A stretch of DNA of 64,000 nucleotides, taken from Candidatus Spongiisociaceae bacterium (GTDB lineage: Bacteria > Actinomycetota > Acidimicrobiia > Spongiisociales > Spongiisociaceae). This document shows, one piece after another, positions 4,235-55,862 of this stretch. The translations under genes were made by a program, and so were the position numbers. The stretch is from positions 4,384,001 through 4,448,000 of the forward strand of contig OZ253564.1 in assembly GCA_965262915.1 (NCBI GenBank). The letters are read 5' to 3'. Numbering within the stretch: position 1 is the stretch's first letter; each line of letters starts with the position of its first letter. The notes beneath the pieces are model-generated. The model had not been told where the DNA came from. It searched no databases and saw only the letters and a list, made by a program, of their open reading frames with translations.

Positions 4235-4249
4235 AAATCCACTCATACT

Positions 4250-4440
4250 TAGAAGGTTCCTGGGCTGGGACGGGTCTGACCCAACTGAAATCTGGCTTTG
4301 TGCCTTTTCATCGATCTGTCGGCCTGTTCCCAGCTTGGGGGTGTAACCCCCTGACCCGGGGCGGATGTGACCTTATAGGAGCTTTGATCTTCCACCACCG
4401 TGAGTGGTCTGTCCACCGCCTTCCGGGTCCGAGGATTAGG
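4250..4440 (+). ncRNA. Putative IS110 bridge RNA (A1)
   Basis: ACTGAAATC (4284-4292) and TCATCG (4308-4313) match the target; ATAGGAGC (4375-4382) and TGAGTGG (4401-4407) match the element ends; RNA boundaries approximate. Confidence 0.75.
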
Positions 4441-4473
4441 AAGTGATTCTATCCAGCAGAGGAGGAAGGTGTC

Positions 4474-5703
4474 ATGGGAGAAGATGGTCGGGTTGTGTTC
4501 GGTGGGGTTGATACCCATCGTGATACCCATGTGGCGGCGGTGGTTGATGGCGCCGGTCGGGTCCTGGGAACGGCACCGTTCGGAGCTGATCGAGTCGGCT
4601 ATGAGCAACTGGAAGACTGGTTGCGGTTACAGGGTCGCGTTAGCCGGGTAGGAGTGGAGGGCACCGGCAGCTACGGCGCCGGCCTCGCCCGCTATCTGAT
4701 GGCGGCGGGCATCGAGGTGGTAGAAGTGAACCGGCCGAACCGGCAGCTACGCCGCCAGCGGGGCGGCAAGACCGACAGTGTCGACGCCGAGGCGGCAGCT
4801 CGGGCAGCGGCCTCGGGGCAAGCTACCGCAGTTCCCAAATCTGGTGACGGACCGGTTGAGTGCATACGGATGCTGTTGGTGGCCCGCCGCTCGGCTACCA
4901 AGGCCCGCACCCAGGCCGCTAACCAGATACATTCTGTGACCGTTACTGCACCTGAGCCGCTAAAACGCCAGCTCAGAGGTCTCAAGCTCAAGGCTCGGGT
5001 TCGGGTCTGTGCCCGCTGGCGTCCCGGCCAAGCACAGACCACTGCGGCGTACGCGAAGATGGCTCTACGCTACCTGGCCCGCCGATACCAATCCCTCGAC
5101 GCAGAGATCCGCGAACTCGACGTCGAGATCCGTCGCCTCTGCGCCGAGGCTAACCCGGCTCCCTTAGCCGCCACCGGTGTGGGCCCTGACAGCGCTGCTG
5201 CGCTGCTAGTCGCTGCCGGCGACAACCCCGGACGGATGAAATCGGAACGGTCCTTCGCTGCGCTATGCGGCGCCAGCCCCGTCCAGGCATCATCGGGACA
5301 GACCATCCGGCATCGTCTCAACCGGGGCGGCAACCGCCAAGCCAACAACGCACTCTGGCGGATCGCTACCACCCGGATACGCCACGACGCAGCCACCAAC
5401 CAATACGTGGCACGGCGCCAGGGGGAAGGAAAGAACCGAAAAGAGATCATCCGCTGCCTCAAGCGGCACATCGCCCGAGAGGTCTACCGACTGCTGACCA
5501 ACCCGCCACCAACCCCGAACTGCGCCCGGCTCCGCCGCCGACGTCAACACGCCAACATCACCGTCACCCAGGCCGCCCAACAGCTCGGAACCCACCCCAG
5601 CCGCATCTCCGCACTCGAACGCGGCCGAGACCACAACCACCAACTCGCCAGCCGATACCAGACCTGGCTCCTAACCCACCAACCGGCCCCATCACCGACT
5701 TGA
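4474..5703 (+). CDS. IS110 DEDD recombinase with C-terminal XRE-like HTH
   Basis: GVDTH, GVEGTGSYG, KTDSVDA, ASSG, RGGNRQAN motifs. Confidence 0.92.
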   Translation: MGEDGRVVFGGVDTHRDTHVAAVVDGAGRVLGTAPFGADRVGYEQLEDWLRLQGRVSRVGVEGTGSYGAGLARYLMAAGIEVVEVNRPNRQLRRQRGGKTDSVDAEAAARAAASGQATAVPKSGDGPVECIRMLLVARRSATKARTQAANQIHSVTVTAPEPLKRQLRGLKLKARVRVCARWRPGQAQTTAAYAKMALRYLARRYQSLDAEIRELDVEIRRLCAEANPAPLAATGVGPDSAAALLVAAGDNPGRMKSERSFAALCGASPVQASSGQTIRHRLNRGGNRQANNALWRIATTRIRHDAATNQYVARRQGEGKNRKEIIRCLKRHIAREVYRLLTNPPPTPNCARLRRRRQHANITVTQAAQQLGTHPSRISALERGRDHNHQLASRYQTWLLTHQPAPSPT

Positions 5704-5899
5704 CAACCATAGGAGCATCGAAGAGCCAGTATACCGGCGCCTCTGCGGTTCTTACGCCGTCTGGTAGCGGTTCGAGGGTGTCCCGGCTGAAACCTTGTGG
5801 CTCGAAGCTGGTGGATCAGGGGCGGCGTAGCAGCGCGCATCCGCAGAGCCAGGTTGTGTGGGGGACTCTTTGATCGGTTGATGTCGCTGAGCGGAGGCC

Positions 5900-32058: not shown

Positions 32059-33734
32059 CCCCCACCGGGAAGGGTCTGACACCCGACCAGATCAAGGGTC
32101 TGCTACGTATCCTCGACAGGGAGCTGGGTCGCGCTATGGACCTGGATGAGCCGCTGACGATGCTGGTGGTGGGCGGGGCGGCTATCTCTATGCAATGGGA
32201 TCCTGGGCGGTACACCAAAGACGTTGACGTGGTGTCCCAGGGCCTACCCCCGATGCTGTGGAAGGTGGTGGCCGACGTGGCCAAAAGCCGGGAAGGCGTG
32301 GCACTTGATTGGCTCAACGACGCCGCCCAGCTCATGGTGCCTGTCCCAGACTTCGACCCGGAGCCCACCCTGGTCTACGAAGGTCAGAACATCCACGTCT
32401 ACGGGGCGTCCGCCCGCTATGTGCTAGCCATGAAAGCTGTCTCCGCCAGGGTCACCGACATCGAGGACTTGCCCACCCTACTGACGGCCGGAGAGTTCGA
32501 CAGTTTCGACGAGGTGCTGGAGACGGTCGCTCAGGCACACGGCCGCACCCAGCTACCCGCCGTGACTCAGAACAAGCTCCGGCAGGCTTGGGACGACGCT
32601 CTCACCGCCGCCGCTATGCCCGAACGTGGGTACCTGTCGGTGAACCCCGACTACGACAACGCCTGGGGTTGGCAGCTAGTCGCACGGCATCCCGACGGTG
32701 AACCTATCGAACGGTCGGCCACCTACCCGACGAAAGAAGCAGCACGGTCGGTAGCCGATCTAGCGGTGGCCATACTCGACCCGGGGCAGCCGCTCTCGTT
32801 CGTCCCCTGGGCACCGGCGGTTCCCCCACCCGCCCCCATAGGCCGCGGACCCGCTGTTCGGGTCAGCGTCGCCCACAAGGACGAGGCGTGGCAGATACGG
32901 GCCGTCGACGCCGACGGTTACCTGACCGCCCTGTCCCAGCCCTACACGTCGCATCAGGAAGCCAACGAGGACCTGGCGTTCCTCGCAACGGTCAGCCAAG
33001 TGTGTCGCGTCGAGGTGGACTCACAGGGCCGCGGGGCCCGGTTACCCGTACAGGTCCACGACACCTGCGCCTGTGTCGATACCAACGCCTGCCGACACTA
33101 CGAGACCGCACCTCGGGTACTGGTCCACCACCAACCCGTCCCTGCTAACCCGATCACCGTTTCGGTGCGGGCAGACCGGGCTTCGACGTGGGGCTGGGAA
33201 CTGGTAGCGAACGACCCGGACGGGTCACCCCGCCAGGTCAACGGTCCCTACCCGACGGCGGAGACGGCAGAAGCGGCCCGTGACTTCGCTATGAGCGTTG
33301 TCAACAAGGACGCCCCCCTCCGAGTCGTCGGGTGGTCACCCGCAGATGTTACCGGCTGGGACGACACCGATTACACCGCCCCGGCAGCCGACGTTGCGGT
33401 CACCATCCAGCTGGCACCCGCAGCCGGGGTTGACACCTGGCAGCTGCAAGCAGCCGACCCCGACGGTACGGTGTTTGCGACGTCGCAGGAGTACCAGGGA
33501 TGGCAAACCGTCGCCGCCGCCCGCCACTGGCTGGGAATGCTGGGCGTCATGGCCGGTGACACCGCAGTGAACGGTCCGGTGAGGGACACGACCCTCCCCA
33601 CCAGTCGGGTCTGCGGTTGCGAGTCCCGTGGAGCCGAATGTCACCATCACAACCTCGCACCGGGAACCACATTGGAGGACCTGGCCCACCAGACCCGCCA
33701 GGAGCGACACCGCGGGCCGTCCCTCGGTCTCTGA
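31953..33734 (+). CDS. DUF6036-like nucleotidyltransferase fused to YegP/DUF1508-like repeats
   Basis: VVGGAA..TKDVD, WLND, LAMK..R..D.ED; four W.W/QL.A.dG..s..Y repeats; true start probably ~32060-32080. Confidence 0.7.
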   Translation: MASPPLCATVGLPPGTHPSSDARQRHPRLVAALGLTPTGKGLTPDQIKGLLRILDRELGRAMDLDEPLTMLVVGGAAISMQWDPGRYTKDVDVVSQGLPPMLWKVVADVAKSREGVALDWLNDAAQLMVPVPDFDPEPTLVYEGQNIHVYGASARYVLAMKAVSARVTDIEDLPTLLTAGEFDSFDEVLETVAQAHGRTQLPAVTQNKLRQAWDDALTAAAMPERGYLSVNPDYDNAWGWQLVARHPDGEPIERSATYPTKEAARSVADLAVAILDPGQPLSFVPWAPAVPPPAPIGRGPAVRVSVAHKDEAWQIRAVDADGYLTALSQPYTSHQEANEDLAFLATVSQVCRVEVDSQGRGARLPVQVHDTCACVDTNACRHYETAPRVLVHHQPVPANPITVSVRADRASTWGWELVANDPDGSPRQVNGPYPTAETAEAARDFAMSVVNKDAPLRVVGWSPADVTGWDDTDYTAPAADVAVTIQLAPAAGVDTWQLQAADPDGTVFATSQEYQGWQTVAAARHWLGMLGVMAGDTAVNGPVRDTTLPTSRVCGCESRGAECHHHNLAPGTTLEDLAHQTRQERHRGPSLGL

Positions 33735-33744
33735 TCTTCGGTAG

Positions 33745-33830
33745 TTAGCAGACGGCCCATCACAACACCTCCTACCCATCCCGACTGGTATTTCCAGACC
33801 TAGGTGTTGCGTTGACCCTCTGAGGCCACA
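33745..33830 (-). mobile_element. IS30-like left-end relic
   Basis: TGTGGCCTCAGAGGGTCAACGCAACAC; homologous to 43828-43910. Confidence 0.55.
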
Positions 33831-33852
33831 GTCCAAATATTCCGTTAACCCC
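33831..33852. repeat. Outer half of a Tn3-like IR
   Basis: Reverse complement GGGGTTAACGGAATATTTGGAC is 21/22 identical to 6332-6353. Confidence 0.7.
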
Positions 33853-34025
33853 ATCGAGGCGGCGGGACGCATCCGATCATTGACAGTGCTGGCGGTGGCA
33901 TCAGCGGCCACTTGGCCGGTGACCGCCACGACCAGGGGCCATACCTCGGGTCTCTGACCGTGTAGCCCACAACGGTCAGGTTGTCCGATCATTGGCGGTT
34001 GGCGGCACGGGCGCGGCGGTCAGGC

Positions 34026-35024
34026 TCAGAGGCTCAGCCCGCCGGATGGTCTAACCAGCTGTGGGGTGCTGTCGCGCGACCGGATCCGCACCCGCCGCTG
34101 GTAGAGCTCTTGGAGAGCGTCCCACGCGGTGCGGAGACGGGGATGAGCATCGAACAGTCTGTCGAGGTGCGCCTGGTGGGCTTCGGTTAGGTGATCGGCC
34201 CGGCGCAGGAGGGTGAAGCGGGCTCGGAACAGGTCCGGCTCGAACGTTGGGGGACGCCGGTGGGGGTCGCGGCGCTGCAGCTCTCTGCGTACCAGAGTGA
34301 GGCCTTGGGTGAACCAGCGTACGACGTGGAACCGGTCGAGCACATGGCGAGCAGCTGGCAGATACTGTGCGATTGCGGCCTGATATGAGCGGGACCCGTC
34401 GCTCACGACTATCTCCACCTGCCGGCACCACTGGGGTCCTTGATCCCTAAAGAACCTGGACAGCGACCCTTTCGTGCGACCTGGGATCATCGCCAGCACC
34501 TTGCCGCTGTCGCCACAGGCGACCACAGTCACATACCGGTGACGGCGCCGTATCGACGTTTCGTCGACCAACAGCACACGACACGGCCGGGCCCGGCGAC
34601 GCTGCGCCACCCGCTCCGAGTGGGCTCTCACCAACCCCATTATCCGATGCCACCCAACCCCGTGATGGCGGGACGCTGCCCGAATCGACATCACCGTTGC
34701 ATCCGCCACCAGGCGACGGGCGAACCGGCGGGTTAGGCCAGCTTCGAACTGGTCGTGGTCCTCGAGGTGCCGCTCGCCACAGTTCCCACATTCGAACCGG
34801 CGTCGCCGCCACACCAGCGTGGTGCGGCGGCCGCTCACCTCCAAGTCACGAACCCTCTTGGATCGCCGATCCCACACCCGTCGGCATTTGAACCCGCAAT
34901 GGCGGCACCGCGACCACTCCCGAGCCGATTCCACTTCGACCTCGAGACGCTCAACAGTGTCGACCCCCACCCTCATCACGCGAACACCCGACAAGTGCAG
35001 ACGAACGGACATAACATCAGACAT
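34026..35024 (-). pseudogene. Second ISL3-type transposase, truncated; its left IR is displaced to 38069-38084
   Basis: Zn finger, LVDE, SD, DRFH; C-terminus missing. Confidence 0.85.
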
Positions 35025-36499
35025 CGAGGCCTCTCCCTGGATCGGCGATGTTGGCTATTCACCGATTCCAGCGGGGCCTCACCCCCATTCCAAGGATTTC
35101 ACCCCACCCAACCCACGATGCTCCTATGTTTTGCAAATCGGTTGTTGGGTGAGCCAGTGTTGGTATCGGGTAGCGAGGTGGTGGTTGTGGTGGAGGCCTC
35201 GTTCGAGTTGTGATAGGACGGTGGGCTGCGTGTCGAGGTGGTGGGCGGCGCGGGTGAGGGTGATTCGGGCTTGGGTTCGGCGGTGGCGTAGGTCGGTTCC
35301 GTGGGGTGTTGGGGGCGGGTCGGTGAGGAGGTGGTATATCTCGCGGGCGATGTGGCGTTTCAGGCAGCGGATTATTTCGGTGTGGGTTTTTCCTTCCGCT
35401 TCGCGTCTGGTGACATATTCTTTGGTGGCAGCGTCGGTGCGCATTCGGTTGGTAGCGCATCGGCCATAGCGCGTTGTTTGCTTGGCGGTTGCCGCCTCGG
35501 TTGAGACGGTGCCGCACTATCGGTCCCGATGATGCGGCTACGGGGCTGAGGGCGCAGAGGGCCGCGAAGGCTGCTTCTGAGTTCATACGTCGTGGGTTGT
35601 CACCAGCAGCGACCAGGAGAGCAGCGGCGGTGTCGGGTCCTACTCCGTAGGCGGCCAGCAACGCAGGGTTGGCCCGTGCGCAGAGACCGCGGATCTGTTT
35701 GTCGACCTGTGTGATCTCGGTGTCTAGATTCTGGTATCGGCGGGCTAGAAGCCGCAGTGCCCGCTTGGCGTATGCCGCAGTGGTCTGCGCTGTGGCTGGA
35801 CGGAAGCGGGCACAGACCTTGACCTGTGTCCGGGTCGGGAGATCCCGGAGTTGGTGTTTGACCTGCTCAGGAGCGGTTACTACCAGAGCGTGCAGCTGGT
35901 TGGCGGCCTGGGTGCGGGCTTTGACCGCGGAGCGGCGAACTACCCGCAGCATCCTGGTGGCTTCTACCGGTCCGTCGCCCGTCTTGGGTAGGGCGGTCGC
36001 TTCACCGTTGAGAGCAGCCCGGGCTGCTGCCTCAGCGTCGGTGGTGTCATCCTTGCCCCGCCGCCGGCGAAGCTGGCGGTTGGGACGGTTCACCTCCACC
36101 ACACCGATACCCGCCTCGGTGAGATGACGTGTGAGCCCAGCGCCGTAGCTGCCCGTTCCCCCCACCCCGACCCGGCAGATCCGACCCCACGACTCCATCG
36201 GGGCGACCAGTTGGGCATAACCGGAGGTATCAGCCCCGAACTGGGCGGATCCCAACAGGCGACCCGCGCCATCCACCACCGCCCCAACGTGGAAATCCCG
36301 ATGTGTGTCCACCCCGCCAACCACACCTACCCCATCGGCCCTAACTTGCTCCGCCATGTGCTCGCCTTTCGTCGGCTGCCTAGAATCCAACCCCCGGAGC
36401 CGGGCAGAGCGGCGGACAGAACACTCACGGTGCAAAAGTCGAAGGCTCCTAATGGGGGTCCACCACTTCTGCCGGTGTTTCTGGGAGGGTGTGGTGGTT

Positions 36500-36660
36500 G
36501 AGCTGGCTGGCCGGTGAGTACTCCAGGCTCCTGGAACGTTGATTCCTGCTGATAGATCGTGCCCCGGCCGGTGAGTGAGGGCCGCTTGTAGCGCTCATGG
36601 GGTGGCGTGCCACAGAGCACTGATCCATTAGGTCGCCGCCAGGCGTTCTCCACAGCTCAG
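36500..36660 (+). ncRNA. Putative bridge RNA of IS110-B
   Basis: AGGCTCCT and TGATAG match the target; TGGGGTG and CCATTAG match the donor; boundaries approximate. Confidence 0.78.
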
Positions 36661-36694
36661 CAGAGAGTGGACCCGCGCAAGGAAGGGGCGAAGG

Positions 36695-37915
36695 ATGATC
36701 TTTGTGGGTAACGACTGGGCTGAGGGACATCACGATGTGTATCTCATGGACGAGGAGGGAGCCCGCCTGGGGTTCTCCCGTCTACCGGAGGGCCTGGCGG
36801 GTGTGGCCCGCTTGCACGAGATGGTCGCCAAACACGCATCGGATGCGGCCGAGGTGGTGGTAGGGATCGAGACCGACCGTGGTCTGTGGGTCGGTGCTCT
36901 GGTCGGGGCGGGTTATCAGGTGTATGCGATCAACCCGATGGCAGTTTCCCGTTACCGGGACCGTCACCGCCAGGGTGGAGCCAAATCAGACCGAGGAGAC
37001 GCCAAGGTGTTAGCCGATCTGGTACGCACCGACCGTCACAACCACCGTCCGGTAGCCGGGGACAGCCCCGAATCGGAAGGTATCAAGATCATGGCCCGTG
37101 CCCATCAGAACCTGATCTGGGCGCGGACCCGCCACACCAACCAGATGCGCAACGCGCTGCGCGAGTACTACCCTGCAGCCCTGGAAACGTTCGATGACCT
37201 GGCCCATCGCGACGCCCTAGCCATACTCGGTCGGGCACCCACCCCCACCCGGGGCGCCCGCCTGACACTTCCCCAGATCAGAGCAGCGGTACAGAGAGGC
37301 GGACGGAAACGCAACCTCGACAAGGTTGCCCGCCGCATACAGAAAGGCCTCAGAGGTGCCCACCTCACCGCACCCGGGCCGGTCGCGGACGCCTTCGGGA
37401 CGATCGTTGCTTCGCTGGTCAAGATCATCGCGGAAACCAACCGCCAGATCGCCGACCTCGAAGAAACCCTCGAGACCCATTTTGAAGAACACCCGGACGC
37501 CGTCATCTACCACTCCCAGCCAGGACTCGGTACCGTGCTCGGCGCCCGGGCGCTCGGTGAGTTCGGGGATGACCCCGACCGCTACACCAGCGCCAAGTCT
37601 CGCAGAAACTACGCCGGCACGTCGCCCATCACCATCGCATCAGGCCGCAAACACGCCGTCGTTGCCCGCCAGGTCCGCAACCGGCGACTCCCCAACGCTT
37701 TGGACCAATGGGCATTCTGTTCCCTCAACAACAGTCCAGGAGCGCGAGCCTTCTACGACCAACGAAAAGCAGCCGGCGACCTCCACCACCAAGCACTACG
37801 AGCCCTCGCCAACCGGCTCGTCGGCATCCTCCACGGCTGCCTCAAACACCGAACCCCCTACGACGAACACACCGCCTGGGCACACCGAACCATGCTCGAC
37901 CGAGCCGCAGCTTGA
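36695..37915 (+). CDS. IS110 recombinase (different clade, intact ORF)
   Basis: GNDWA, GIET, KSDRGDA, ASG. Confidence 0.92.
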   Translation: MIFVGNDWAEGHHDVYLMDEEGARLGFSRLPEGLAGVARLHEMVAKHASDAAEVVVGIETDRGLWVGALVGAGYQVYAINPMAVSRYRDRHRQGGAKSDRGDAKVLADLVRTDRHNHRPVAGDSPESEGIKIMARAHQNLIWARTRHTNQMRNALREYYPAALETFDDLAHRDALAILGRAPTPTRGARLTLPQIRAAVQRGGRKRNLDKVARRIQKGLRGAHLTAPGPVADAFGTIVASLVKIIAETNRQIADLEETLETHFEEHPDAVIYHSQPGLGTVLGARALGEFGDDPDRYTSAKSRRNYAGTSPITIASGRKHAVVARQVRNRRLPNALDQWAFCSLNNSPGARAFYDQRKAAGDLHHQALRALANRLVGILHGCLKHRTPYDEHTAWAHRTMLDRAAA

Positions 37916-38109
37916 CATTTACGCTCCTGGGGTGTCTATCAAGTCACCCCGCTCCCCGGTTCAGGGTTCCCACCCGGGGCCAGGTCGACAGATCGTGGGA
38001 AAGGCACCAAAGGCCAGTTTTCGCGTGAGTCAGACCCGGCCCCAACCGGAAACCCTATAAGTATGAGTGTTTCCGCGCAGGGCCAACTACTCATCTAGGC
38101 TAGGCTGTC

Positions 38110-38349
38110 ATGTGGCACAACAATCCGAAGGTCCACTACAAGTGTGAGGGCCTCGAGTCGGGTCCTTGTGAAAAGCGGCATCATGACCTTATGACAGCGG
38201 TTCACCATACGGACAAGTACAACCGGCGGGTTTCGATGGACAATCCGAGGGCGGTGGGGGATCGGGTAGTGATCGCCCATGGCGACCTTGATCCGTTGCC
38301 CTATCCAGTGCGGGCCGCACAACCCTGCGACTGCCCCACCGATCATTGA
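38110..38349 (+). CDS. Small His/Cys-rich hypothetical protein
   Basis: 79-aa ORF just upstream of the SLH gene. Confidence 0.35.
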   Translation: MWHNNPKVHYKCEGLESGPCEKRHHDLMTAVHHTDKYNRRVSMDNPRAVGDRVVIAHGDLDPLPYPVRAAQPCDCPTDH

Positions 38350-38370: not shown

Positions 38371-40336
<1,966 letters not shown>

Positions 40337-44048: not shown

Positions 44049-45218
44049 TCAGTTGATCTTGAGTGAGGGTACGTAGTGGCCGTCAGCTCTGTGGTATACG
44101 GTCACTCGTTCAAGTACCTGTGGGTTGATGGCTTGGCCGACGGTGACCGCGGCCGAGAGGGGTATGGCTGCGGTGAGGTGGATGTTGCGGGTCTGTTTGT
44201 GGTTGTGTTCGATCGCTGCGAAGACGTCGTAGCAGGTTGAGCGGAAGTGGTCGAGTGTGGCGCGGGATTCGATGGCGTTGGCGTGGGGCGGGCTGTCACC
44301 GGCTAAGCGGATGGTGTAGGTGGGGAGGTCCTGGAGGTCGGCAGGGAGTTCGGCTCTGTGGATGGATCCGGACACGTTGATAACGACATTGACGGCGGTG
44401 GCAGGTGAGGGTGCTGGTGTCTCGACGACGAAGTCGCTCTCGTCGGCGGTGTCGGGCCAGTCCCAGGACTGGGTACGACGCGAGCGCTGGTAGATGTCGG
44501 TGCTGAAACTGTCGTCGAGTTTGGAGCCGAGGTAGACGAGCAGGGGTAGGCGGGCGAACGCAAAGACGCTGACGTGGCCGATGTGGTCGCGGGCGATGCC
44601 GTCTCGGAGACGTCCGTCGACGAGTTCGTCGATGGCTAGGCACGCGTCGGCGAAGTATGTGTCGCTGCTGGCCTGTTCGCTGGGGCGGCCGCGTAGATCG
44701 CATTCGATGGTGGCGTGGTCAACGGCGAGCGCGAAGTCGGGGAAGCGGTCGCCGGTTCTGAGGCAGGCGCTGGTGGCTTCGAGTCGGGTGCACTGCACGG
44801 TGTTGCCGTAGATATCGCCGATGACGCGGAGGACGACGGTTCGTTCGCGTTTGACCATCGCGGTGGCCTTGCGGATTCGGCGTTCGTGGTGACGTTTCGC
44901 TGTTTTGAGGGTGTCCACATCGAAGGCGGCGAGGTTGGCGGTGGCGTCGATCTGGGGATGGTGGTATGGGCATAGGAGCATGAGGTTGTCGGGGTCGTCG
45001 GGATCCTCGCCGGGGAGTAGATATTCATGGCGAGGCGACCTCGACTTGGTAGGCGAGGCCGGTTCGTGTCGGCGGGTGCGTCTCTTGCCCTTGATGTGGG
45101 CCACCTCGCCGACGTTGGGCGTGGCGGATCCGATGTCGCCGTCGAGGAGGTAGGTGTTGCACACTACGCACCGGCCGCCTGAGCGAACCCAGACTTTTCG
45201 TCGGTCCGAGTCCTTCAC
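44049..45218 (-). CDS. cap5: HNH-SAVED effector (Cap5-like)
   Basis: GGRCVVC, AHI, NLMLLCPYHH..ID; SAVED motifs FAFARLPLLVYLG, YQR, W.WP; GTG start overlaps the cap2 stop. Confidence 0.88.
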   Translation of the reverse strand: MKDSDRRKVWVRSGGRCVVCNTYLLDGDIGSATPNVGEVAHIKGKRRTRRHEPASPTKSRSPRHEYLLPGEDPDDPDNLMLLCPYHHPQIDATANLAAFDVDTLKTAKRHHERRIRKATAMVKRERTVVLRVIGDIYGNTVQCTRLEATSACLRTGDRFPDFALAVDHATIECDLRGRPSEQASSDTYFADACLAIDELVDGRLRDGIARDHIGHVSVFAFARLPLLVYLGSKLDDSFSTDIYQRSRRTQSWDWPDTADESDFVVETPAPSPATAVNVVINVSGSIHRAELPADLQDLPTYTIRLAGDSPPHANAIESRATLDHFRSTCYDVFAAIEHNHKQTRNIHLTAAIPLSAAVTVGQAINPQVLERVTVYHRADGHYVPSLKIN

Positions 45219-52688: not shown

Positions 52689-52891
52689 GCTCCCTTCTGC
52701 CCAGGTGAAGATCCGCCGGGTCGGCGTCGTGCGGACGCTGATATCGAGGATGACAAGTGACCAGTCTTGGCGGGTGGCGCGGTCGGCTAGGGCGAGGATG
52801 TCGGAGGAGTTACGGCCGAAGACGGGAGACGACCGACACGTCAGCCCGGCCTTCGTTGAGGCCCTGGAGGATGCGCCTTATTGGGCTCATC

Positions 52892-54367
52892 GATGCTCCT
52901 ATGGTTGTCAAATCGATGATGGGGCGGTTTGGTGGGTGTGCAGCCAGTTCTGGTATCGGGTGGCGAGGTGGTGGTTGTGGTCTCGGCCGTGTTCGAGTGC
53001 TGAGATGCGATTGGGGTGGGTTCCGACGGCTTGGGCGGTCTGGGTGAGGGTGATGCCGCGTTGTTGGCGTCGGGTGCGTAGGCGGGCGCAGTTCGGGGTT
53101 GGGTGCGGGTTGGTGAGGAGCCGGTAGATTTCTCGGGCGATGTGCCGCTTGAGGCAGCGGATGATCTCCTTTTTCTTCTTGCCCTCGGCCTTGCGTCGTG
53201 CCACGTAGGCTTTGGTGGCGGCGTCGGTGCGCATCCGGGTGGTAGCGATCCGCCATAGCGCGTTGTTGGCTTGGCGGTTGCCGCCCCGGTTGAGACGATG
53301 CCGAAGGGTTCGTCCTGATGACGCCTGGACGGGGCTGGCGCCGCACAGCGCCGCGAAAGACCGTTCCGATTTCATTCGCTTGGGGTTGTCGCCGGCGGCG
53401 ACCAACAACGCGGCGGCTGTGTCAGGACCGACACCTTCTGTGGCCAGCAGGGCCGGGTTGGCCTGGGCGCAGAGACGCCGGATCTCGGCTTCGAGTTGGG
53501 CGATCTCTACGTCGAGGGCCTGATACCGGCGGGCCAAATGCTGTAGGGCACGCTTCGCATACGCGGTGGTGGTGTGGTCTGTGCCGGGTCGGAACCGGGC
53601 ACAGGTTTTGACCCGTGCTTTGAGATTCATGCCCTTTAGCTGGTGTTTTAGCGGCTCGGGAGCTGTTACGACCAGCGCATGTATCTGGTTAGCGGCCTGG
53701 GTGCGGGCCTTGACCGCGGAGCGGCGCACCACCCACAGCATCCGTATGCACTCGACCGGGCCCACACCGGACTTGGGAACCGCGGTTGCTTCGCCCGAGG
53801 CAGCTGCCCGAGCTGCCGCCTCGGCGTCGACGCTGTCGGTCTTGCCGCCCTTCTGGCGGCGTAGTTGGCGGTTGGGGCGGTTGACCTCCACCACCTCGAT
53901 GTTCATCTCGGTCAGGTAACGGGCCAGGCCGGCGCCGTAACTACCCGTTCCTTCCACCCCAACCCGAACCAACTGTCCCCGCGACTCGAACCAGGTGACC
54001 ATTCGCCGATAACCGGATTCCTCCACCGCGAAAGACTCCGATCCCAGTACCCGCCCGACGCCATCCACCACCGCTGCTACGTGGACGTCCCGATGGGTGT
54101 CAACCCCACCGTAGATAATCTGGTCTGCTTCTCCCATGATGCTCTTCTCCTCTAGGGGATAGAATCATTTCCGATCCCCGGACCCGTGTGCGGTTGGACA
54201 GGCCACTCACGGTGGAGAAGTTGAAGGCTCCTATTAGGTCACATCCGCCCCGGGTCAGGGGGTTACGCCCCAGGCCGGGAACGGGCCGACAGATCGATGA
54301 AAAGGCACAAGGCCAGATTTCAGTTGGGTCAGACCCGCCCTAGCCCAGGAACCCTCTAATTATGAGT
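52892..54367 (-). mobile_element. IS110 element A2
   Basis: Same ends and same insertion point as A1. Confidence 0.9.
52908..54137 (-). CDS. IS110 recombinase with C-terminal XRE-like HTH
   Basis: Diverged paralog of 4474-5703. Confidence 0.92.
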   Translation of the reverse strand: MGEADQIIYGGVDTHRDVHVAAVVDGVGRVLGSESFAVEESGYRRMVTWFESRGQLVRVGVEGTGSYGAGLARYLTEMNIEVVEVNRPNRQLRRQKGGKTDSVDAEAAARAAASGEATAVPKSGVGPVECIRMLWVVRRSAVKARTQAANQIHALVVTAPEPLKHQLKGMNLKARVKTCARFRPGTDHTTTAYAKRALQHLARRYQALDVEIAQLEAEIRRLCAQANPALLATEGVGPDTAAALLVAAGDNPKRMKSERSFAALCGASPVQASSGRTLRHRLNRGGNRQANNALWRIATTRMRTDAATKAYVARRKAEGKKKKEIIRCLKRHIAREIYRLLTNPHPTPNCARLRTRRQQRGITLTQTAQAVGTHPNRISALEHGRDHNHHLATRYQNWLHTHQTAPSSI

Positions 54368-55862
54368 GGATTTCAGTGGGGAGTGACCGATGGGAGTAGG
54401 TCCCAGTTGGGTTTCCCCGCGTAGAGAAGGGCGCGGATTCGGTAGTTCGCGAAGTTGGGTAACCCGAACGCTGCTCGTTTGATCCGTTTGATGAGGTTGT
54501 TGAGGGCTTCGGTGGGTCCGTTGGTTACCTTCGAGATGTGCCAGTTGGTGATCTGGGGGGTCCAGCGGGCGATGGTACGACCCAGCTTGTTGATCTCGGG
54601 TGGGCAGGATTCGTGTTGGAGGTCGTCTGCGAGCTGGAGGGTGTATCGGAGAGCAAGGACCGGACTCTCGATCCCGTAGATGCCTCGTACCGTCTCTTTC
54701 GCGTGCCAGGCTGTGCGCACTTCCCCGTGGGGGTCACCAGCGTCGAGGAGACCACGCAGCCGTATTTGACCGCGGTCGCTGATCCTCTCATGCGCAGCGG
54801 TTAGGAGCCGCCGTATCCGATACAGCGGGTCATCCTTGCGGCCTCTGTGTCCCAGGGTTTCGTTTTGGACTCTTCGTCGTACCTCGTCGAGACGCTGGTT
54901 GGCGAGGCGGATGACGTGGAACGGGTCCGCTACCTGCAGCGCGTGCGGTAACACCCTGTCATACGCCTTCCGATACGAACCGGACATGTCCAACACCGCC
55001 CAGCGGATAGCCTCACACCATTCGGTGGGTTGTGACCGGAACCAGGCTGCGGCGCTTTCTGCTGTTCTACCAGGGACTATGTCGAACCGGCTGGTGGCCG
55101 CCAACGTCGACGACAGAGGTGCACCAGACTTTGGTACGCCAACGGCCCCGACGCCAGAACAACGTCTCGTCCACTCCCACAGCTTCGACGGTCCCGACCC
55201 GATCGGTGTCTGCTTCCAGCAGCGCTTCGCCCCAGCGGCCAACCTCTTTGTTCACCGTATGCCAATCACAACCAAGTTCTGCGGCGACCTCGTCGACCGA
55301 ACGGCCCCGCCCACCCACCTGGATGGTCACCCACCGGGCCGCTCGGGATGTCAACAACGCCCGTTGGGGACCAATCTTGGGGTCTTGTTCGATGAACGAT
55401 CTGAGCGCACAGTCGGTGTTCGGACATGTCCAGCGCCGTTTCCGCCACCGCAGCCGCACAGGCCGGCCGAACGCCGGTAAATCCACCAACACCACACTCC
55501 GATAGCCCTTCGACCACACCGACCCGCCACAGGCCACACACAACGGCCGGGGCTTGCGGGACCGGATCACCACCTCCAACGGTGCCTCCTCGCCCGGGTC
55601 GTTGATCCCTACCAGATCAACCTCACCTAGGCCTACCAACTTCTCGCACATGCGCGCAGGGATCAGCTTCCACAGGGGTCCTCCTGCCTCGGATGTCATT
55701 ACCAACACCCGATTATGGAGGACCCCTCCTCACTTCTGGTGGATTCCAACTCCCCCTGGCAGATCCCCTACTCCCCACTCATTTCCGAAGAGCCGGTTAT
55801 TGATACTTGGTTTGAGGGCGTTCCTGGTGGTTGCTGCTGTAGGGATGACCGGATCCATCCAT

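Follow-up and report, generated by a model that had tools for sequence, protein, structure and literature searches.

An IS110-group element within the putative bridge-RNA gene of a second IS110 lineage

Three nested insertion elements and their boundaries

The stretch of DNA analysed here (the window) spans 64 kb, positions 4384001-4448000 of contig C1 in the source genome, G000, of a Candidatus Spongiisociaceae bacterium, and three elements were nested within its positions 34026-38080. The terminal repeat of an ISL3 element was split by an IS110 element on the minus strand, A3, which was in turn split by an IS110 element on the plus strand, IS110-B. Throughout, A or clade A, including A2, A3 and A', denotes one IS110 lineage and B the other, B1 denotes the guide pair of the window copy of B, G001 and the like are related genomes, and L-numbers are loci. 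The triple nesting had been proposed in a preliminary description of the window and was borne out by Pfam matches, among them DEDD_Tnp_IS110 and Transposase_20 in both A3 and B, and by comparison with other ISL3 and A3 copies.

The limits of IS110-B, read from the sequence at its ends and from comparison of copies, were 36449-37937 (plus strand, both CT cores included). The element begins CTAATGGGGG and finishes CCTGGGGTGTCT, with CT at each end, and its right end, which serves as left donor, is CGCTCCTGGGGTGTCT (37922-37937, plus strand). The site in which B had been said to sit, AGGCTC[CT]ATCAAG, was present intact and empty as AGGCTC-CT-ATCAAG in two A3 copies elsewhere in the genome (541927-543411 and 544725-546205). 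As the empty site holds one CT core and B carries CT at both ends, B was inserted at the CT core without target duplication; as in the IS110 group, it has neither terminal inverted repeats nor a target duplication. The two empty A3 copies (G000:C1 541927-546205) are near-identical and inverted, lie 1.3 kb apart and have a composite-like arrangement.

The B transposase (406 amino acids; 36695-37915, plus strand) is intact, and its open reading frame (ORF) was unbroken in all three close copies of the genome. The N-terminal DEDD RuvC-like domain was matched at domain level by the full PF01548 profile over residues 4-160 (E 1.9e-35) and the C-terminal Tnp domain by PF02371 (6.5e-9), and among PDB entries ISCro4 (1.4e-8) and IS621 (5.9e-8) were matched. 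In a phmmer alignment, S316-G317 of B aligned to the SG of ISCro4 (9t56), suggesting that S316 may be equivalent to S241 of IS621. The non-coding ends measure 246 nt on the left and 22 nt on the right, and the putative RNA gene thus lies 5' of the transposase gene, as in the IS110 group. Assignment of B to the IS1111 group was rejected, given only 22 nt after the stop codon; in A, the stop codon sits inside the right end.

The ISL3 element was recognized by its 332-amino-acid transposase ORF (34026-35024, minus strand) in the ORF list, with Pfam matches to DDE_Tnp_ISL3, Zn_ribbon_ISL3 and HTH_Tnp_ISL3. A second ORF at 33336-33992 suggests that the ISL3 transposase gene (33336-35024, minus strand) is split in two. 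Left of A3, the inner part of the ISL3 terminal repeat (35040-35116) aligned to the ends of other ISL3 copies, which run straight into TTTCCGCGCAG, and the outer tip of the repeat, TTCCGCGCAG, lay right of A3 (38071-38080). Empty ISL3 ends read ...CCCACG/TTTCCGCGCAG, and the uninterrupted repeat at other ISL3 ends of the same genome is ...CCAAGGATTTCACCCCACCCAACCCACG-TTTCCGCGCAG. Because its outer bases belong to this repeat, the span previously given for A3, 35112-38084, was slightly too wide; comparison of four copies and their flanks, together with the logic of the core, placed A3 at 35117-38070 (minus strand, both core dinucleotides included).

The A3 right end, or left donor, CATAGGAGCA (35119-35128, minus strand; right end ...TAGGAGCAT), contains the transposase TAG stop at 35124-35126, and the ORF of intact copies ends ...ICKT before that stop. 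The A3 transposase gene (35124-36357, minus strand) is broken by a +1-nt frameshift near 35458, a 1-nt insertion private to the window copy, and the three other A3 copies encode a 410-amino-acid protein. Clade A comprised 31 copies longer than 1 kb in the genome; 29 of these end ...TAGGAGCAT, and every copy with a readable left end starts ACTCAT. The clade-A core is TC and not CT; a left junction carries AC if the target had AC there. As core, CA or CT each leaves surplus bases relative to the empty ISL3 ends, and TC fits every junction. An occurrence of TAGGAGCAT at window position 44973, considered as a clade-A end, was a chance match.

In the convention given by Durrant et al. (PMC11208160), the left target guide (LTG) corresponds to the top-strand left target plus core and the right target guide (RTG) to the complement of core plus right target; the left and right donor guides (LDG and RDG) match the ends of the element. 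In clade A, the target guides form two blocks in a loop between GGGTCTGAC and CTGTCGRCC, corresponding to the left flank plus core and to the complement of A-TC plus right flank (seven subclades, alignment read by eye). The guide pair of A3 for the ISL3 repeat consists of the left target guide CGCGAAAAC (38017-38025, minus strand), equal to ISL3 repeat bases plus core, and the right target guide with its handshake base, CCCACGAT (37992-37999, minus strand), the complement of the ISL3-side junction ATCGTGGG; a second pair in the clade, GGTGAAATC and TCCAAGGAT, corresponds to a second position in the ISL3 repeat.

Downstream of these blocks clade A reads ...ATAGGAGC(C/T)T, with 8-nt identity to the right end, followed by the right donor guide GTGAGTG (36422-36428 in A3, minus strand), the complement of the left-end start CACTCA. 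In two subclades, G replaces A at the same position of the right end and of the LDG (GTAGGAGC). RNAalifold applied to the clade-A left end recovered the target loop and no clear donor-loop fold, so the identification of AGGCTC[CT]ATCAAG as the LDG segment of A3, with which our analysis agreed, rests on the canonical guide order, the 8-nt identity and the one covarying position. The CT core of B is the AG within AT-AG-GAGC of this LDG, and B therefore splits the LDG into a 5' half (37936-37943, minus strand; CTTGATAG in A sense, its last two bases being the right-hand CT of B) and a 3' half (36442-36448, minus strand; GAGCCTT in A sense, the left flank of B). The clade-A TAG stop lies inside the right-end motif ATAGGAGC, and the motif is thus under three constraints, namely the end of the protein, donor recognition and its copy in the LDG.

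Two further clade-A copies were present in the window, at about 4240-5720 (plus strand) and 52891-54390 (minus strand), with the LDG AGGCTCCTATTAGG or AAGCTCCTATAAGG; both belong to a large clade-A subclade with the target ...CACTGAAATC-...-CGATGAGCC. The near-match to the B site reported for A2 was recovered as AGGCTCCTATTA at window position 54225.

The left end of IS110-B and its predicted bridge RNA

All guide strings that had been assigned to the left end of B were found on the plus strand at the positions given for them: AGGCTCCT at 36525-36532, TGATAG at 36550-36555, TGGGGTG at 36598-36604 and CCATTAG at 36625-36631. Guide-flank comparison confirmed that the first two match both halves of the target AGGCTC-CT-ATCA. 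In the window copy, the candidate donor guides also agree with the ends of B itself: the LDG is longer than TGGGGTG and agrees with the right end at 12 of 13 positions (CGCTCATGGGGTG versus CGCTCCTGGGGTG, by eye), and the RDG agrees at 7 of 7. The order LTG-RTG-LDG-RDG, described as canonical, held in B and also in A. The combination AGGCTCCT-N12-22-TGATAG was present a single time in the window and in none of 100 shuffles, which excludes a chance occurrence.

RNAalifold applied to 24 B-family left ends placed both target guides in one internal loop rather than in a stem. On the plus strand, a 5' hairpin, CCACCAC.../...GTGGTGG (36460-36497; alignment columns 12-49), is followed by the predicted target-binding loop, bounded by an outer stem (36506-36521 with 36559-36572) and an inner hairpin, GGAA-CGTTGA-TTCC (36533-36546). 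The outer stem, helix 1, showed compensatory changes at 10 of 14 pairs with 98.1% of cells paired, and the inner hairpin, helix 2, at three of four pairs. Between these stems lie the left target guide block (36523-36532), a variable block that matches the left flank of each element, and the right target guide (36549-36556), which ends in a conserved A at 36556, a candidate handshake base. The putative donor-binding loop would be formed by the left donor guide CGCTCATGGGGTG (36592-36604; identical at 12 of 13 positions to the right end at 37922-37934), an inner hairpin, GTGC-CACAGA-GCAC (36607-36620; helix 5, 100% paired and nearly invariant), and the right donor guide CCATTAG, the complement of the left-end start CTAATGG, followed by G 36632, a second candidate handshake base (36625-36632).

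A covariance model built from the B family was used to search 68 more distant loci (Rhodococcus, Mycobacterium, Nocardia, Acidimicrobiia and others), and it gave 70 matches, nearly all immediately upstream of a transposase gene. In the resulting alignment, which favours the structure since it was fitted to the covariance model, 91.5% of cells paired and compensatory changes were found at 19 of 32 pairs; 0 of 500 shuffles reached these values, and slid controls paired at 32-52%. These controls argue that the predicted target-loop structure is real. Handshake guides are described in the bridge RNA by Hiraizumi et al. (PMC11208158). The conserved A that follows the B RTG would form a pair with the T preceding the core of B itself, and the conserved G after the RDG would pair with the C preceding CT in nearly all B targets, an arrangement that, judged by eye, fits handshake guides. 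We infer that the bridge RNA would be made and bound by the B transposase and that B may be active.

Guides, flanks and occupied sites across the B family

The genome contained 11 full-length B copies, and B left-end DNA was present in 17 of 61 related genomes, G000 included; none of the conclusions here depends on the unpublished genome G043 (locus L017). In the alignment of the 11 copies, the variable blocks of the left end were the two proposed target guides, and these matched the flanks of each copy itself. Three copies, at least 98.5% identical, lay at AGGCTC-CT-ATCA and carried the guides CCAGGCTCCT and CTGATAG. Seven copies, 85-87% identical, lay in heptamer repeats, GRCAC-CT-GGCAC, ...-GACAC and ...-AGCAC, with the RTGs GTGCCAG, GTGTCAG and GTGCTAG, respectively, and the remaining copy, with the left flank GGATGCTC-CT, carried GAATGCTCCT and AACATAG. 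Further classes in related genomes lay at CACCCTC-CT-AGCCC and CCCCC-CT-ACCCG. The seven heptamer-class copies (G000:C1 371390-372875, 737777-739262, 719800-721288, 1359845-1361329, 1850586-1852071, 1873956-1875450 and 2093377-2094861) are embedded in GACACCT/GGCACCT sequence, with tandem arrays at five flanks and one or two units at two.

Among 26 non-redundant B elements with both flanks, drawn from several genomes, the mean match of the guides to the element's own flanks was 10.35 of 15, compared with 6.97 in cross pairings, and 0 of 10,000 permutations reached the observed value, a figure that overstates significance because B elements are related and not independent; even so, guides and flanks agree plainly from class to class. 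The matches could in principle be coincidental, with the protein alone choosing a CTCCT-like (reverse ribosome-binding-site) motif; all but two B left flanks end in C before CT, and several classes share GCTCCT. We regard this explanation as extremely improbable, because the guides and flanks agree as GTGCCAG/CTGGCAC, GTGTCAG/CTGACAC and GTGCTAG/CTAGCAC in elements otherwise more than 85% identical, because the observed guide-flank match exceeds every permutation, and because B1 is confined to LDGs even though the genome contains 116 occurrences of GCTCCTAT. B elements with other guides do lie at non-A sites, and those sites match the elements' own guides. The B family appears to represent a natural reprogramming and guide-swap series: five or more target classes share one scaffold, more than 85% identical, with the changes limited to two short blocks. 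Such a series would be directly useful in engineering and in studies of target-loop evolution.

The site AGGCTC-CT-ATCA was exclusive to clade A in this genome: all five occurrences fell within A-type LDGs, and three of the five were occupied by B. Just two unoccupied copies of the 12-mer AGGCTCCTATCA were present in 5.06 Mb, each in an A3 LDG, against 0.36 expected by chance. The collection of B insertion sites that had been proposed as a check was carried out, and 7 of 7 elements with the B1 guide pair, from four genomes, had at least one flank in a clade-A LDG (three in G000, and L005, L006, L019 and L030). The left flank of L019 is non-A, and this element is inverted and 5 kb from L030. 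B elements at A-type LDGs were also present in G005, G006, G002 and G001. Furthermore, among nine metagenome junction contigs (GCTC-CT-B-left-end), two carried a short B footprint in an A-type LDG and two lay at an A-type right end. In the metagenome loci L133 and L139, an A-type LDG holds only the first ~21 nt of the B left end, with three target bases lost, the scar of a former B insertion.

Considering these results, B is very probably an IS110-group bridge-recombinase element that entered the LDG of A by guide-directed insertion at AGGCTC-CT-ATCA. We propose the following scenario. The 5' non-coding end of B would encode a bridge RNA whose target-binding loop reads AGGCTC-CT-ATCA and, as this sequence is present only in the DNA of A3- and A'-type LDGs in this genome, B would have entered these LDGs through RNA-guided recombination, with CT as the core and in the orientation opposite to A. 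The insertion would split the donor-binding loop of A and leave its target loop 1.49 kb from its right donor guide and transposase gene. The target would exist because the LDG of A must copy the right end of A itself, ATAGGAGC, which also holds the stop codon. Since the LDG copies the right end, each A element would offer the motif twice, and a sister B class appears to be programmed for the right-end junction copy.

Several observations weigh against this scenario, at the level of both the RNA and the distribution of the elements. The single-sequence fold of the B left end was no better than shuffles (z = 0.06), and no promoter- or terminator-like site was found there by a sigma-70-based scan, which may not suit this phylum. 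The donor loop is weaker than the target loop, with helix 4 only 79% paired and helix 5 hardly varying, and RNAalifold pairs GGGT of the B LDG with ATCC beside the right donor guide. The B LDG lacks a matched core, which is included in the 7 of 7 match of the RDG, and in two of the three close B copies the donor loop carries variants (GAGGGGGTG; CTGCTAG) that do not agree with the ends of the copy itself. Contigs from four RNA-library runs cover 36448-36658 and parts of the B gene, but RNA ends, strand and level cannot be read from contigs, parts without coverage carry no meaning, and the contigs do not show transcription. As for distribution, the B family is not tied to A: it is generally programmable, many sublineages target non-A repeats and most B classes lie at non-A sites. 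Five of the nine metagenome junction contigs were elsewhere than A, at places that their guides match, and 12 A-type LDGs reading AGGCTCCTATTAGG were unoccupied.

In addition, the two B-occupied A3 copies, in the window and at 3640030, share at least 12 variants relative to the two empty ones, so that the two A3::B copies probably represent one insertion that was then copied. The similarity between the ISL3 copies hosting the two composites is only 87.8%, consistent with the composite having been copied; for this 3-kb A3::B unit, A functions were presumably supplied in trans. These data could be taken to mean that one chance B-in-A insertion spread as a composite, in the absence of recurrent targeting. 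As an account of the whole distribution this is very unlikely. The B copy at genome position 288788 shares 98.5% identity with the window B and occupies the same LDG position, although its host, A', shares only 72% with A3; the insertion at 288788 was therefore independent. In G006 and G002, the A-type hosts show 79-81% identity to A' and lie at different targets, and the guides of B match the site.

Two variations among B copies were also noted. The donor loop exists in two states, CATGGGGTG...CCATTAG and GAGGGGGTG...CTGCTAG, which are met repeatedly in different B classes and genomes, with a hybrid copy at 3640030; the second state has three mismatches to the element's own left end and could derive from recombination between copies or from another function. 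Three RNA-library contigs diverge from the window B, one with a B2-type left target guide, one with an alternative right donor guide and one with an A'-type left end after the B right end (run X4), and these show variant copies in those samples, not transcription.

Reciprocal targeting, its evolutionary reading and known systems

Elements with the LTG GGATGCTCCT and the RTG AACATAG sit at GGATGCTC-CT-ATGTT, that is, the A right end plus flank. This was seen for L002 and L042, for the 291611 copy at its left flank, and for L007, whose A context differs. Two B guide classes thus match the clade-A motif ATAGGAGC, one at the right end of A and one at the LDG that copies it. In the opposite direction, A', with the target loop ACTAGACAC / GCTGGGGAT, interrupts the right end of the B copy at 291611, within CCTGGGG^TGTCTA, with matches of 8 of 9 and 8 of 9 positions. 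Relatives of A' share its right target guide but differ from it in the left guide and in the flanks; in this single instance, the left half of the A' guide therefore looks retargeted in G000. The locus concerned, L127 (G000:C1 about 287100-291611), is a second triple nest in which a decayed B (B3, ORF of 344 amino acids) contains A', 5 nt from the right end of B3, and A' contains an intact B1 in its LDG. B copies with the A right-end junction as left flank also occurred at L004 (G001) and at L136 and L137 (metagenome). The right flank of L004 is an A LDG and its guides match neither flank; flanks of this kind look like the result of homologous recombination between B copies, with the A body deleted.

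It is plausible that B is a hyperparasite of A, and targeting of A may have been selected, for example because A offers a host-neutral, multi-copy and slowly changing harbour, rather than being one drift state among many. A wider and more tentative reading, which taken as a whole we consider rather improbable, is that two IS110 lineages of a sponge-associated Acidimicrobiia genus are in guide-encoded conflict. Under it, B lineages would have been repeatedly retargeted onto the motif that A must keep twice, at the right end and in the LDG, and the A lineage A' onto the donor end of B. The presence of B at both A sites would allow deletion of the A body by homologous recombination, of which the hybrid flanks of L004 look like a product. 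Moreover, the LTG RNA of B, AGGCUCCU, is perfectly antisense to the LDG of the A bridge RNA, AGGAGCCU, so that it could also act against A in trans at the RNA level.

The same mechanism of insertion is compatible with a different evolutionary reading, in which B lineages wander neutrally over multi-copy, host-neutral sequences, the A LDG being one such safe harbour, with neither antagonism nor selection. Other B classes target the heptamer repeats (GACACCT)n, CACCCTC-CT-AGCCC, GTGAGCTC-CT-ATGT and others, and the majority of A copies are untouched. Targeting of repeats and of the ends of other elements is known for the IS110 family (PMC11187229, PMC12288879). Such drift could well account for the pattern, although we lean slightly against it: two separate B guide classes converge on the ATAGGAGC motif of A at its two positions, and A' is programmed for the B right end and was inserted there. 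Because it shares its mechanism with guide-directed insertion of B into the A LDG, drift differs from that explanation only in the evolutionary reading.

B resembles IS621 of Escherichia coli in its DEDD and Tnp transposase, in a 5' non-coding RNA with target- and donor-binding loops (for B, both predicted from sequence and the donor-binding loop only tentatively), in the LTG/RTG convention, the LTG-RTG-LDG-RDG order and the CT core, and in the handshake-like placement of bases. It differs in that the proteins are only weakly similar (E 5.9e-8, confined to the Tnp domain), the RTG of B spans 4-5 bases beyond the core and its LDG has no matched core. Repetitive extragenic palindromic (REP) repeats are the natural target of IS621, whereas the natural target of B is the guide gene of another IS110 element and not a REP-type repeat. 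Relatives are found among actinobacteria (Rhodococcus, Mycobacterium, Nocardia and Acidimicrobiia metagenome-assembled genomes), with transposases 61-86% identical and RNA model matches upstream of the gene.

According to PMC11187229, IS4321 and IS5075, of the IS1111 group, target the terminal repeats of Tn21-family transposons. Their fixed target is thus the end of another mobile element, comparable to A3 in the ISL3 terminal repeat and to the B3 class at the A right end. In contrast, they are of IS1111 type, with a 3' seekRNA and subterminal repeats, and what they target is not a guide-RNA gene but the repeat of a transposon, to which another transposase binds. We know of no reciprocal targeting for IS4321 or IS5075. 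Expanded or nested IS110 loci, with repeated insertion into occupied loci and mobilization of larger composites, are described in a preprint (bioRxiv 10.64898/2026.08.14.744561), and these agree with A3::B apparently having been copied as one unit of 3 kb. In the loci described there, internal boundaries half-match the donor ends of the host itself, whereas B is of another lineage and its target loop matches the site fully.

No case of an IS110 target loop set against the guide gene of another IS110 element, nor of reciprocal targeting, was found in the literature covered, which excluded subscription journals, and examples might be present in the supplementary target-motif tables of PMC11208160 and PMC11187229. 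Programmable guidance of an IS110 to host repeats is the known role of bridge RNAs; here, one guide appears to be set against the guide gene of another element and the end matching it, and one reciprocal case, A' at the B right end, is present. Since a donor guide must mirror the end of its element, each element has two copies of a sequence that cannot be changed on one side alone, which suggests an inherent vulnerability of bridge-RNA elements.

No bridge-RNA match was returned by Rfam 15 over 35000-38200, where only Ms_AS-4 and a chance RsmW match were found. The match to Ms_AS-4, an Actinobacteria small RNA family, lies antisense within the B transposase gene (37516-37597, minus strand; 86.9 bits, E 2.4e-13), and this family may correspond to a conserved stretch of IS110 transposase genes. 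The nest is followed by a gene for an SLH-domain protein (38371-39192, plus strand).

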